Shown: piece after piece, positions 89 to 25,775 of the stretch
Numbering within the stretch: the first letter of the stretch is position 1
Layout of the letters: every line of letters begins with the position of its first letter
Source: Escherichia coli
GTDB taxonomy: Bacteria; Pseudomonadota; Gammaproteobacteria; Enterobacterales; Enterobacteriaceae
Assembly (NCBI RefSeq): GCF_003334335.1
Contig: NZ_QOWQ01000014.1
Strand: one strand, 5' to 3'
Length of the DNA: 64,000 nt
Notes under the pieces: generated by a model
Told to the model about the DNA's origin: nothing
Seen by the model: the letters and a program-made list of their open reading frames with translations, nothing else
The model's database searches: none
Program-made: the position numbers and the translations under genes

Positions 89-208
89 TGCCTGGCGGCC
101 GTAGCGCGGTGGTCCCACCTGACCCCATGCCGAACTCAGAAGTGAAACGCCGTAGCGCCGATGGTAGTGTGGGGTCTCCCCATGCGAGAGTAGGGAACTG
201 CCAGGCAT
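89..208 (+). rRNA. rrfG: 5S ribosomal RNA, terminal gene of an rrn operon (context matches rrnG)
   Basis: 120 nt TGCCTGGCGGCCGTAGCGCGGTGG...GGGAACTGCCAGGCAT recognised as E. coli 5S rRNA; bases 1-88 look like the 23S-5S spacer; kgtP follows as at rrnG. Confidence 0.93.
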
Positions 209-11897: not shown

Positions 11898-11996
11898 GCC
11901 GGATGCGGCGTGAACGCCTTATCCGGCCTACAAGATCGTGCAAATTCAATATATTGCATGAGCCACGTAGGCCTGATAAGCGTAGCGCATCAGGCA
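11898..11996. repeat. BIME/RIP-type element: two inverted REP sequences flanking an AT-rich spacer
   Basis: GCCGGATGCGGCGTGAACGCCTTATCCGGCCTACA ... CAAATTCAATATATTGCA ... GTAGGCCTGATAAGCGTAGCGCATCAGGCA; near-identical copy at 42064..42162. Confidence 0.85.
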
Positions 11997-13513: not shown

Positions 13514-15867
<2,354 letters not shown>

Positions 15868-16113
15868 TTAATTTACTAAACATGGTTTGGTCAGCATAGC
15901 ATCATGTTGTGCGGATAAACACCTGCTATTTTAATATTTGTTACAGTTGCTAAACACGCTGACGCAGGGCGGCGAGAAAAAGAGAAGTTACTGGCTGGTG
16001 GAGGATTAGGTGGTGAAATAAAAAGGCCGTTGGGTTACTCTTCAGGCAGTTAAATGGGCATTTCTACACAGATAATGCGATGTTCAGATTCTGTAGACTT
16101 ATAATGATAGATA

Positions 16114-16269
16114 ATGATCCGTCTACAGCATGACAAACAAAAACAGATGCGTTACGGAACTTTACAAAAACGAGACACTCTAACCCTTTGCTTGCTCAAA
16201 TTGCAGCTAATGGAGTGGCGTTTCGATAGCGCGTGGAAATTTGGTTTGGGGAGACTTTACCTCGGATGA
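16114..16269 (+). CDS. rseD: 51-codon leader ORF ending in ATGA overlap with the rpoE start (consistent with rseD)
   Basis: ATG 16114 to TGA 16267-16269, translation MIRLQHDKQKQMRYGTLQKRDTLTLCLLKLQLMEWRFDSAWKFGLGRLYLG; stop overlaps rpoE ATG at 16266. Confidence 0.55.
   Translation: MIRLQHDKQKQMRYGTLQKRDTLTLCLLKLQLMEWRFDSAWKFGLGRLYLG
16156..16183 (+). promoter_or_regulatory. sigma-E-dependent autoregulated rpoE promoter
   Basis: GGAACTT -35, 16-bp spacer, TCTAA -10; lies inside the leader ORF. Confidence 0.75.
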
Positions 16270-16841
16270 GCGAGCAGTTAACGGACCAGGTCCTGGTTGA
16301 ACGGGTCCAGAAGGGAGATCAGAAAGCCTTTAACTTACTGGTAGTGCGCTATCAGCATAAAGTGGCGAGTCTGGTTTCCCGCTATGTGCCGTCGGGTGAT
16401 GTTCCCGATGTGGTACAAGAAGCTTTTATTAAAGCCTATCGTGCGCTGGATTCGTTCCGGGGAGATAGCGCTTTTTATACATGGCTGTATCGGATTGCTG
16501 TAAATACAGCGAAAAATTACCTGGTTGCTCAGGGGCGTCGTCCACCTTCCAGTGATGTGGATGCCATTGAAGCTGAAAACTTCGAAAGTGGCGGCGCGTT
16601 GAAAGAAATTTCGAACCCTGAGAACTTAATGTTGTCAGAAGAACTGAGACAGATAGTTTTCCGAACTATTGAGTCCCTCCCGGAAGATTTACGCATGGCA
16701 ATAACCTTGCGGGAGCTGGATGGCCTGAGCTATGAAGAGATAGCCGCTATCATGGATTGTCCGGTAGGTACGGTGCGTTCACGTATCTTCCGAGCGAGGG
16801 AAGCTATTGATAACAAAGTTCAACCGCTTATCAGGCGTTGA
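16266..16841 (+). CDS. rpoE: RNA polymerase sigma-E (sigma-24) envelope stress sigma factor
   Basis: ORF 16233..16841; ATG at 16266 (MSEQLTDQVLVERVQKGDQKAFNLLVVRYQHKV...) gives 191 aa. Confidence 0.96.
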   Translation: MSEQLTDQVLVERVQKGDQKAFNLLVVRYQHKVASLVSRYVPSGDVPDVVQEAFIKAYRALDSFRGDSAFYTWLYRIAVNTAKNYLVAQGRRPPSSDVDAIEAENFESGGALKEISNPENLMLSEELRQIVFRTIESLPEDLRMAITLRELDGLSYEEIAAIMDCPVGTVRSRIFRAREAIDNKVQPLIRR

Positions 16842-17524: not shown

Positions 17525-18480
17525 TGAAGCAACTTTGGTTTGCCATGTCATTAGTGACAGGTAGCCTGTTATTCTCTGCTAACGCCTCGGCCACTCCCGC
17601 GTCCGGGGCGTTATTACAGCAGATGAACCTGGCCAGTCAGTCACTGAATTACGAGCTGTCATTCATCAGCATCAATAAACAGGGTGTTGAGTCTCTGCGT
17701 TATCGACATGCACGCCTCGATAACCGTCCTCTTGCACAATTGTTGCAAATGGATGGCCCGCGCCGGGAAGTGGTACAGCGCGGCAATGAAATCAGCTATT
17801 TTGAACCGGGACTTGAACCGTTCACGCTTAATGGCGATTACATTGTTGATTCTCTGCCATCGCTTATCTATACCGATTTCAAACGCCTTTCTCCTTACTA
17901 CGACTTTATCTCCGTCGGGCGCACGCGTATTGCTGATCGTCTTTGCGAAGTCATTCGCGTGGTTGCCCGAGATGGTACACGCTACAGCTACATCGTGTGG
18001 ATGGACACCGAATCGAAATTACCGATGCGGGTTGATCTCCTTGATCGCGATGGTGAAACGCTGGAACAATTTCGCGTGATTGCTTTTAACGTCAATCAGG
18101 ATATCAGCAGCAGTATGCAGACGCTGGCGAAGGCAAATTTGCCGCCGTTGCTTTCTGTTCCTGTAGGTGAAAAAGCTAAATTCAGCTGGACGCCAACCTG
18201 GTTGCCACAGGGTTTTAGCGAAGTTTCCAGTAGTCGACGTCCGCTACCGACGATGGACAACATGCCTATCGAATCACGTCTCTATTCCGACGGATTATTC
18301 AGCTTCTCGGTAAACGTTAACCGCGCTACGCCATCGAGCACCGATCAGATGTTGCGCACCGGACGCAGAACCGTCAGTACAAGCGTACGTGATAACGCCG
18401 AAATCACCATTGTCGGTGAACTGCCGCCGCAAACGGCGAAACGCATTGCCGAGAATATTAAGTTCGGGGCAGCGCAATGA
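17524..18480 (+). CDS. rseB: periplasmic regulator of sigma-E, binds RseA
   Basis: 318 aa MKQLWFAMSLVTGSLLFSANASA... with signal peptide; start overlaps rseA stop (TAATG). Confidence 0.95.
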   Translation: MKQLWFAMSLVTGSLLFSANASATPASGALLQQMNLASQSLNYELSFISINKQGVESLRYRHARLDNRPLAQLLQMDGPRREVVQRGNEISYFEPGLEPFTLNGDYIVDSLPSLIYTDFKRLSPYYDFISVGRTRIADRLCEVIRVVARDGTRYSYIVWMDTESKLPMRVDLLDRDGETLEQFRVIAFNVNQDISSSMQTLAKANLPPLLSVPVGEKAKFSWTPTWLPQGFSEVSSSRRPLPTMDNMPIESRLYSDGLFSFSVNVNRATPSSTDQMLRTGRRTVSTSVRDNAEITIVGELPPQTAKRIAENIKFGAAQ

Positions 18481-18956
18481 TCAAAGAGTGGGCTACCGTC
18501 GTCTCCTGGCAAAACGGGCAGGCGCTGGTCAGTTGTGATGTTAAAGCTTCATGCAGCAGCTGCGCTTCACGCGCCGGTTGCGGTAGCCGCGTGTTAAATA
18601 AACTTGGCCCGCAAACCACGCATACCATTGTCGTACCCTGTGATGAGCCGTTAGTGCCGGGGCAAAAAGTGGAATTGGGGATCGCCGAAGGCAGCCTGCT
18701 TAGCTCCGCATTACTGGTTTATATGTCGCCGCTGGTGGGATTATTCCTTATCGCTTCGCTATTTCAGCTACTCTTTGCTTCTGACGTCGCAGCATTATGT
18801 GGTGCGATCCTCGGTGGTATTGGCGGGTTCCTGATTGCGCGCGGCTACTCGCGTAAGTTTGCTGCCCGGGCAGAATGGCAACCGATCATCTTAAGCGTGG
18901 CATTGCCGCCTGGCCTTGTGCGATTTGAAACATCTTCGGAAGACGCGAGCCAGTGA
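18477..18956 (+). CDS. rseC: RseC (SoxR-reducing system related membrane protein)
   Basis: 159 aa MIKEWATVVSWQNGQALVSCDVKASCSSC...; overlaps rseB stop. Confidence 0.93.
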   Translation: MIKEWATVVSWQNGQALVSCDVKASCSSCASRAGCGSRVLNKLGPQTTHTIVVPCDEPLVPGQKVELGIAEGSLLSSALLVYMSPLVGLFLIASLFQLLFASDVAALCGAILGGIGGFLIARGYSRKFAARAEWQPIILSVALPPGLVRFETSSEDASQ

Positions 18957-19153
18957 TTTCACTGGCTTTGTTGCATTTTGCATAACAAATGCGAGGACGT
19001 TTCCAGATACCACAATCCATACGGTATGAACATTTCCTCGCCTCAATGTTGTAGTGTAGAATGCGGCGTTTCTATTAATACAGACGTTAAGCTCAGAACA
19101 GCGACTTCTAAAAGCCTGGTTAACCGGGCATTAAGGCACAATAATCATACTTT

Positions 19154-20953
<1,800 letters not shown>

Positions 20954-21995: not shown

Positions 21996-22087
21996 TGAGA
22001 TAAATCTCCCGTGGCTAACGACATCCCCCGTCGTTGTGTATAGAATATTCCCCCGAAGTTTAAGGTTGGCACCTCCAGGTTGCCACG

Positions 22088-22181
22088 GCACACGAAACAG
22101 CGTTGGTCCCCATATACCGGTAAACTGAAACTGCAGCGAAGCAGTTAGCAGAACCATGTATATCAGGTCTGTTTCGTGTGC
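22088..22181 (+). promoter_or_regulatory. long stem-loop in the rnc 5' leader (candidate RNase III autoregulatory processing site)
   Basis: GCACACGAAACAG (22088..22100) is the perfect reverse complement of CTGTTTCGTGTGC (22169..22181), 34 nt upstream of the rnc ATG. Confidence 0.65.
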
Positions 22182-22184
22182 TGA

Positions 22185-23797
<1,613 letters not shown>

Positions 23798-25679: not shown

Positions 25680-25775
25680 AAAAAGTAAAACCCCCGAACT
25701 GGTAAGGAACGGGGGTTTTACTTTTTAACTTTAATTTTGTGCAGCATGCACCCTCAACAACAGCGATTATGGATC
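25680..25775 (-). ncRNA. ohsC: candidate antisense sRNA of the ShoB toxin (OhsC/RyfC-like); ends approximate
   Basis: Minus-strand segment between the bidirectional terminator and the divergent promoter region; carries the reverse complement of the 19-nt repeat that recurs at 25987..26005 in the shoB 5' UTR; known shoB/ohsC locus between acpS and yfhL. Confidence 0.45.
25687..25727. terminator. bidirectional Rho-independent terminator (acpS on plus; short antisense RNA on minus)
   Basis: Stem AAAACCCCCG / CGGGGGTTTT flanked by A-run upstream and T-run downstream, so it can terminate in both directions. Confidence 0.8.

Follow-up and report, generated by a model that had tools for sequence, protein, structure and literature searches.

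In Escherichia coli, the stress-regulator gene iraD is preceded by a short upstream ORF, idlP (ORF27), which slightly overlaps it and on which its translation depends by coupling (PMC7652899, after Park et al. 2017). The pair rseD-rpoE, considered here, displays a similar arrangement and, according to the same paper, both pairs belong to the CsrA regulon; CsrA acts on iraD entirely via repression of the upstream ORF, whereas it binds the Shine-Dalgarno (SD) sequence and start codon of rpoE directly. Attenuation leaders such as trpL, hisL, leuL and pheL are, like rseD, short 5'-leader ORFs counted among the 'leader peptides' of EcoCyc, whose list includes rseD (bioRxiv 10.1101/2020.07.18.207399). 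[quoted passage not shown] It was validated by a lacZ translational reporter, attributed to Yakhnin et al. 2017 in PMC12350097, and was detected again by PIRT-seq (PMC12350097). The PIRT-seq supplements did not mention it.

The window (the whole 64-kb stretch of E. coli DNA analysed here) carried the following elements at the start of this operon:

16114..16269, + strand: rseD coding sequence, 51 codons plus TGA (ORF list; RefSeq rseD CDS; NCBIfam NF033697)
16266..16841, + strand: rpoE coding sequence, sigma-E, 191 aa (RefSeq; 100% identical to RPOE_ECOLI cluster members)
16266..16269, + strand: ATGA junction, in which the rpoE ATG (16266-16268) overlaps the rseD TGA (16267-16269) (sequence)

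The ORF runs from the ATG at 16114 to the TGA at 16267..16269 in the +1 frame relative to rpoE, and its product was MIRLQHDKQKQMRYGTLQKRDTLTLCLLKLQLMEWRFDSAWKFGLGRLYLG (sequence and ORF list). It coincided exactly with the RefSeq CDS 'rpoE leader peptide RseD' (WP_001303621.1; L001 2755..2910 mapped to 16114..16269), of which the K-12 counterpart in NC_000913.3 is rseD b4725 (2710009..2710164, minus strand). The peptide scored 104.2 bits against the NCBIfam equivalog NF033697 leader_RseD (cut-off 35; E = 3.2e-30) and was 96-98% identical to proteins named RseD in a protein search, while no Pfam domain was found in it. Its position was also that of RseD, adjoining rpoE on the 5' side and on the same strand, with a stop codon overlapping the rpoE start. 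The 461 bases around rseD were 100% identical to E. coli K-12 MG1655 and occurred as a single copy in each of the complete E. coli genomes (5426/5426), across all of which a 181-nt rseD/5'UTR segment was at least 99% identical. The window carries the K-12 rseD allele (b4725, YP_009518806.1 / WP_001303621.1; Yakhnin et al. 2017, J Bacteriol 199:e00484-17), with the same sequence, coordinates, ATGA overlap and operon and without any difference. The 51-codon ORF is thus rseD, a leader gene that had been described and annotated before, and it is not new. An earlier note, made from the sequence alone, had described a 51-codon ORF at 16114..16269 with internal in-frame ATGs at 16147 and 16210 and had tentatively recognized the rseD leader in it. 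The ORF was borne out by the sequence and the ORF list, both ATGs are present, and the identification was upheld by the RefSeq coordinates, the NF033697 match and the literature.

Six promoters have been reported for rpoE, the autoregulated sigma-E one being the most proximal (P6; PMC6358824), and all are located 'upstream of, or within' rseD (PMC8595263). Two promoter elements were considered here:

16156..16183, + strand: sigma-E-dependent autoregulated rpoE promoter, with -35 GGAACTT (16156-16162), -10 TCTAA (16179-16183) and a 16-nt spacer (motif match)
16100..16105, + strand: conserved TATAAT situated 8 nt before the rseD ATG, a candidate -10 for an upstream promoter of rpoE (sequence; conservation)

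The first falls within rseD codons 15-24. It agreed with the published sigma-E motif of Rhodius et al. 2006, of which the -35 is GGAACTT, the -10 TCAAA-like and the spacer ~16 nt (PMC1312014). The pattern GGAACTT-N15-17-TCNAA matched only once in the 64-kb window (0.06 matches expected by chance). In 28 of 33 Enterobacterales, the -35 was found at a near-fixed distance of ~-109 relative to the start of rpoE. The promoter GGAACTT-N16-TCTAA had been placed inside the ORF by the earlier note, and this placement stood. Transcription from it would start around 16189-16190. Full rseD is carried solely by transcripts beginning upstream of 16114, since the sigma-E transcript begins ~75 nt inside the ORF; the earlier statement that only upstream promoters could give the full peptide agrees with this, and the major stress-induced (sigma-E) transcript is unable to encode full-length RseD.

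The TATAAT, noted earlier as lying just upstream of the ATG, was confirmed at that position and was the sole copy in the 407-nt nadB-rpoE intergenic region (0.26 expected by chance). In genera such as Escherichia, Salmonella, Citrobacter, Enterobacter, Klebsiella and Pluralibacter, '(G)ACTTATAATGA' was retained between -162 and -168. This conservation covered core Enterobacteriaceae, genera without rseD included, and the hexamer thus has the appearance of a genuine -10, conserved independently of rseD. A sigma-70 scan of 15850..16300 found no two-hexamer promoter and no -35 partner for the TATAAT, and the bases preceding it are ACT instead of the TGN of an extended -10; the hexamer was thus associated with neither of the features sought for sigma-70 promoters (a -35 at 16-18 nt or an extended -10). 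The candidate promoter is likely to depend on an activator or on an alternative sigma factor. The Cappable-seq and Kim 2012 supplements contained no entry matching the rseD-leader coordinates. A sigma-54-like GG-N10-GC at 15913..15927 was discarded, this degenerate pattern not being enriched (11 found, 7.1 expected).

Initiation of rseD and of rpoE involves three further elements:

16147..16149, + strand: in-frame ATG, Met12, the sole available start in Citrobacter amalonaticus (40-aa RseD)
16210..16212, + strand: in-frame ATG, Met33, which would give a 19-aa product and lacks an SD
16249..16254, + strand: rpoE SD, GGGGAG (anti-SD duplex; invariant across Enterobacterales)

As judged from anti-SD duplex energies, no SD was present at any of the three in-frame rseD ATGs. 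Their best duplexes reached +0.4, +0.7 and +1.2 kcal/mol, compared with -8.5 kcal/mol for rpoE and a median of -2.6 for all ATG trinucleotides of the window. Without anti-SD complementarity, initiation of rseD would have to be SD-independent. Met33 is the only rseD-frame ATG on the sigma-E-promoter transcript. A transcript starting ~7 nt past the TATAAT, at 16112-16113, would have a leader of 0-2 nt and rseD would then be read from a leaderless or near-leaderless mRNA; with such a leader, the TATAAT promoter could not supply a conventional ribosome-binding site. In Salmonella and Citrobacter freundii the rseD ATG lies inside the TATAAT hexamer, so that a TATAAT transcript could not encode their full ORF, and this position speaks against leaderless initiation being a mechanism shared by these relatives.

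Bacterial operons commonly use overlapping stop/start junctions for translational coupling. The same operon displays junctions of similar type between rseA and rseB (1-nt overlap) and between rseB and rseC (4-nt overlap, 18477..18480); these join conserved protein genes, whereas rseD lacks protein-level conservation and contains a promoter. The generality of the ATGA junction was followed in a comparative sample of 80 rpoE loci, one per species, supplemented with Citrobacter, Salmonella and Klebsiella pneumoniae loci. ATGA was found in 73 of the 80 gammaproteobacterial loci, with or without an upstream ORF, and was also encountered in Vibrio, Aeromonas, Shewanella and Pseudoalteromonas, genera whose overlapping frame has just 0-5 open codons. 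RpoE of gammaproteobacterial loci starts with Met-Ser (AGC/AGT) or Met-Asn (AAC/AAT), the Ser2 codon being AGC in 31 of 32 Enterobacterales, and ATGA is near-universal in Gammaproteobacteria because of this N-terminus. It is therefore not itself evidence of coupling, and the overlap would be permissive for coupling, not diagnostic of it. The junction had been presented as the classic coupling arrangement: the overlap at 16266..16269 is indeed there, but its presence in nearly all loci makes it uninformative.

The reading frame upstream of this junction had a narrower distribution. Full-length rseD was limited to Escherichia, Salmonella and Citrobacter among the compared loci, and proteins named RseD were retrieved by protein search from Escherichia, Shigella and Citrobacter only (40-64 aa). 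A homologous ATG upstream of the sigma-E promoter was found in Escherichia, Citrobacter and Salmonella; elsewhere, such an ATG occurred in few genomes and in unrelated upstream sequence, and none was present in Enterobacter, K. pneumoniae and most Pantoea. These relatives display the same promoter and 5'UTR without an upstream ATG, which indicates that coupling is dispensable for rpoE expression in them. Even in the three genera the start was mobile. The ATG is located at -152 in E. coli, E. albertii and C. enshiensis; a 1-nt indel in Salmonella and the C. freundii group puts the TATA-ATG (-161) in frame, extending the product to 54 aa; and C. amalonaticus retains only the equivalent of Met12 (-119), giving 40 aa. 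Within E. coli, a W41* allele (G to A at 16235, TGG to TAG) was found in dozens of natural assemblies. The ORF then stops 29 nt short of the rpoE ATG and a GGA motif is lost; the occurrence of this allele in nature means that loss of the overlap is tolerated. An additional allele, encoding a 48-aa RseD and lacking 9 nt of the sigma-E promoter, was set aside as a probable assembly artefact: in the assembly concerned nadB is fragmented and no rpoE gene was called.

Such a distribution raises the question of whether the ORF is incidental, i.e. whether conserved promoter and 5'UTR signals merely happen to be stop-free, with a translation that serves no selected regulatory role. With the base composition of the region, 51 open codons upstream of a fixed stop have a ~3% chance, which is modestly unlikely and concerns one genome, the lineages that inherited the frame not being independent. 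An incidental origin would also accord with an ATGA that is universal for unrelated reasons, with the absence or much shorter length of the ORF in many relatives, with the missing SD and with the viability of W41*. Against it, the overlapping frame remained open over about twice the length of either other frame in 33 Enterobacterales (median 38 codons versus 18 and 14; lineages not independent), and an ATG-initiated frame was kept in Escherichia, Salmonella and Citrobacter despite the indels and substitutions that moved its start. The published reporter evidence also opposes it, as does the drop in rpoE translation of more than 50% upon loss of coupling that Yakhnin and co-workers reportedly observed in 2017. 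We consider an incidental ORF quite unlikely.

Selection on the peptide itself was not apparent in these comparisons. Comparison of E. coli with four Citrobacter lineages showed substitutions spread evenly over the codon phases (6/7/7, 8/7/6, 5/5/6 and 5/5/3), and pN/pS of rseD was ~0.65-1.35 where rpoE displayed a dN/dS of 0.007-0.03 for the same pairs, bearing in mind that a dN/dS test on 51 codons has little power and that the full-length ORF sample comprises three genera. In contrast to the 16-27% difference at rpoE synonymous sites, the segment from -60 to 0 before rpoE differed by 0-3% only. The last 60 nt before rpoE are thus constrained as DNA or RNA and not as peptide. Taken together, the comparison supports the maintenance of an open ATG-initiated frame only, in one small clade, with a peptide sequence that is apparently not selected.

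These results bear directly on the proposal that RseD is a functional small protein of envelope stress, for instance one that modulates sigma-E, RseA or a different partner, with an overlap mainly ensuring co-expression. The original rseD paper is said to have raised this possibility. The 'Rse' name, the curated family model NF033697, the translation indicated by reporter and PIRT-seq data and the near-identity of the 181-nt segment in 5426 E. coli genomes would all fit with it. However, a pN/pS of ~1 and the lack of codon-phase bias are not those of a selected protein, the N-terminus is redefined by start shifts among sister genera, and those residues that are conserved fall on the -35, the -10 and the 5'UTR. 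Moreover, the ORF is missing in most Enterobacterales that keep the remaining locus, truncated alleles occur naturally and the peptide lacks a Pfam domain. A functional RseD is thus regarded as very unlikely.

At the RNA level, the leader displays the following features:

16191..16198, + strand: CUUGCUCA, 5' arm of a potential helix, at the extreme 5' end of the sigma-E transcript (single-sequence and consensus fold)
16267..16274, + strand: UGAGCGAG, 3' arm of this potential helix, over the rpoE start, the rseD stop and rpoE codons 2-3 (single-sequence and consensus fold)
16235..16266, + strand: three GGA motifs (16235-37, 16251-53, 16264-66), which are candidate sites for CsrA (sequence)
16234, + strand: Term-seq RNA 3' end in rseD codon 41, 32 nt ahead of the rpoE ATG (bioRxiv 10.1101/2020.07.18.207399 supplement)

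Folding of the whole leader was not more stable than that of shuffled sequences (z = -1.0 and -0.4), and no Rfam family was found in the leader at E <= 1 or window-wide at gathering scores. A consensus fold of 31 Enterobacterales 5'UTRs yielded one long-range helix, CUUGCUCA with UGAGCGAG. Its arms were paired in 98.8% of cells, versus 27-48% on sliding the partner; only one compensatory change was observed and 59 of 500 shuffles scored as well. The complementarity of the two arms is conserved, and the helix itself is a possible one. In partition-function folding, the predicted unpaired probability of the rpoE AUG was 0.10 on the sigma-E transcript versus 0.62-0.83 on longer transcripts, so that the AUG may be less accessible in the former. 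A hairpin sequestering the SD (GUUUGGGG/CCUCGGAU), predicted by the single-sequence fold, was rejected: its register was absent in the consensus fold and both of its arms are invariant.

CsrA sites have been described on the SD and start codon of rpoE (PMC7652899), and two of the three GGA motifs overlap precisely these signals; the published sites presumably correspond to the GGA motifs in 16235..16266. There was no GGA within 40 nt of the rseD ATG at 16114. The locus differs in this respect from idlP-iraD, as the start of rseD lacks a nearby GGA motif and rpoE retains a strong SD of its own: a GGA at the ribosome-binding site of the upstream ORF, which an idlP-iraD type of control would imply, was not found, the motifs being grouped at 16235-16266, on the rpoE SD and AUG.

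The Term-seq 3' end (2710044(-), ~32,000 reads) had a Rho score of 0.51 ('No') and an intrinsic-terminator score of 1.2 (bioRxiv 10.1101/2020.07.18.207399), the published threshold of the latter being 3.0. It could be seen as the read-out of an attenuation leader, in which the position of the ribosome on rseD would control premature 3'-end formation at -32. This 3' end is abundant, lies inside rseD and is located 2 nt past a small hairpin, and databases label rseD a 'leader peptide'. Yet a terminator scan of 15850..16300 found no terminator-like stem with U-tract, the terminator score was below threshold and the Rho score not significant, the small hairpin was unsupported by the consensus fold, and rseD contains no run of regulatory codons. 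Unlike trpL, hisL, leuL and pheL, rseD thus displays no terminator/antiterminator pair, U-tract or regulatory codon run, and it overlaps the downstream start codon while these leaders end before the terminator. Neither a terminator with alternative pairings nor a match to an Rfam leader family, as expected of attenuation leaders, was detected. Attenuation is considered extremely unlikely.

The reading preferred here, and in our opinion a highly probable one, is that this known rseD leader acts by being translated: its translation, and not its peptide, would bring ribosomes to the start of rpoE on mRNAs made from upstream promoters. Following the published account, which is the best supported, rseD would be translated on transcripts from the non-sigma-E promoters upstream of 16114 and ribosomes would finish at the rseD UGA (16267-16269), two bases of which are common with the rpoE AUG. 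Once there, they may either reinitiate at the rpoE AUG or have cleared CsrA and local structure from the rpoE ribosome-binding site. Such coupled initiation would supplement direct initiation at the strong SD of rpoE itself, and what counts would be the act of translation, not the RseD peptide. Both rseD translation and CsrA binding at the rpoE SD and start codon are taken from the literature (PMC12350097 and PMC7652899). An rpoE SD at -8.5 kcal/mol would fit a partial and not an absolute dependence on coupling. Close relatives differ in the position of the start yet retain an ATG-initiated frame up to the rpoE AUG, which would favour a role of translation over one of the peptide. An rseD without SD, a major stress-induced transcript that lacks the full ORF, relatives without an upstream ATG and natural W41* alleles would count against coupling. 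As for the coupling of rseD and rpoE put forward in the earlier note, the interpretation was supported by the reporter literature and by a compatible geometry, with two reservations: the ATGA is not diagnostic, and the TATAAT, devoid of a -35 partner, would be unable to supply a conventional ribosome-binding site.

A further and rather unlikely extension of the coupling model for E. coli is that the TATAAT transcript gives leaderless, SD-independent synthesis of RseD, coupling then acting as a promoter-specific boost of rpoE. The sigma-E transcript would give no RseD, and base pairing of its first 8 nt with the start codon of rpoE may render it intrinsically less translatable. If this were true, different rpoE promoters would produce mRNAs of differing translational efficiency.

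Rediscovery of the annotated and curated rseD brings no new biology as such. The additions made here are modest and consist of the apparently neutral evolution of the peptide, the narrow clade and drifting start of the ORF, the caveat concerning ATGA and the absence of an SD before rseD. Sigma-E being an essential factor of E. coli whose excess is toxic, every layer setting its level matters, and rseD is one documented layer beside six promoters, CsrA, RseA/RseB and small RNAs.

Upstream of rpoE, the sequence (G)ACTTATAATGA (window 16100..16110) was kept at -162 to -168 relative to the rpoE ATG throughout the core Enterobacteriaceae, as judged from the window and the equivalent position in the fetched rpoE loci L003-L013, L015, L040, L088 and L090. 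Because this conservation extended even to genera devoid of a full-length rseD, it is suggested to be a conserved promoter -10 element. A promoter scan of 15850..16300 revealed no -35 partner for this candidate. The nadB-rpoE intergenic region also carried a second type of element, listed here together with a short reading frame starting further downstream.

Candidate elements between nadB and rpoE
15913..15927, sigma-54-like GG-N10-GC element (GGATAAACACCTGCT) of the nadB-rpoE intergenic region
16104..16133, mini-ORF of nine codons (MIDNDPSTA) in the rpoE frame, starting at the ATG inside TATA-ATG

The sigma-54-like element would fit the RpoN-dependent rpoE promoter described in the literature; the degenerate GG-N10-GC pattern itself was not enriched (11 found, 7.1 expected). 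The start codon of the mini-ORF is joined to the rseD frame by a 1-nt indel in Salmonella and the Citrobacter freundii group, yielding an RseD of 54 aa, and a Shigella flexneri entry (P0003) likewise starts at the ATG inside TATA-ATG.

Within rseD, published Term-seq data (bioRxiv 10.1101/2020.07.18.207399) place an abundant RNA 3' end at window position 16234 (NC_000913.3 2710044, minus strand), where a Rho score of 0.51 and an intrinsic-terminator score of 1.2 assigned it to neither class. This end falls in codon 41, 32 nt 5' of the rpoE ATG and 2 nt 3' of a small hairpin (16218-16232). Codon 41 is also altered in a natural E. coli allele, W41* (G to A at 16235, TGG to TAG; loci L092-L094), which the assembly collection contains in about 39 blocks. 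In this allele rseD stops 29 nt short of the rpoE ATG, and a candidate CsrA site, namely the GGA motif at 16235-16237, is lost. A 48-aa RseD was encountered in a single E. coli assembly (L095, CP178304.1), and resulted from the loss of 7 + 2 nt in the sigma-E promoter spacer and -10, at the site equivalent to window 16161..16180. Since nadB was broken up and an rpoE gene call was absent in this same assembly, the shortened form is probably a sequencing or assembly error.

Overlapping junctions were also displayed further along the operon, by rseB/rseC (4 nt, 18477..18480) and rseA/rseB (1 nt, 17524). Elsewhere in the window, an Rfam search returned the following matches, all of which are known K-12 features.

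Rfam matches at gathering level
91..206, 5S rRNA
11932..11974, ES036
18441..19272, (-), AsrC, antisense to rseC
22055..22269, rncO
25682..25758, (-), OhsC
34938..35085, GlmY
63757..63828, naRNA4

The stretch CUUGCUCA (16191..16198), the first bases transcribed from the sigma-E promoter, was nearly invariant among 31 Enterobacterales and complementary to 16267..16274, that is, to the rpoE start codon and codons 2-3; covariation was too sparse to prove this putative pairing. The start codon itself is flanked by a small palindrome (window 16260..16271) across Gammaproteobacteria, as seen at the junction in loci L033-L081. GCTC occupied positions -6..-3 from the rpoE ATG in 36 of the 45 non-enterobacterial loci and was able to pair with GAGC (+3..+6) in 29 of the 45, leaving the A and U of AUG inside a 4-nt loop, while Enterobacterales displayed CCTC instead of GCTC and hence three pairs. 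This palindrome may be the reason for the strong invariance of ATGAGC.
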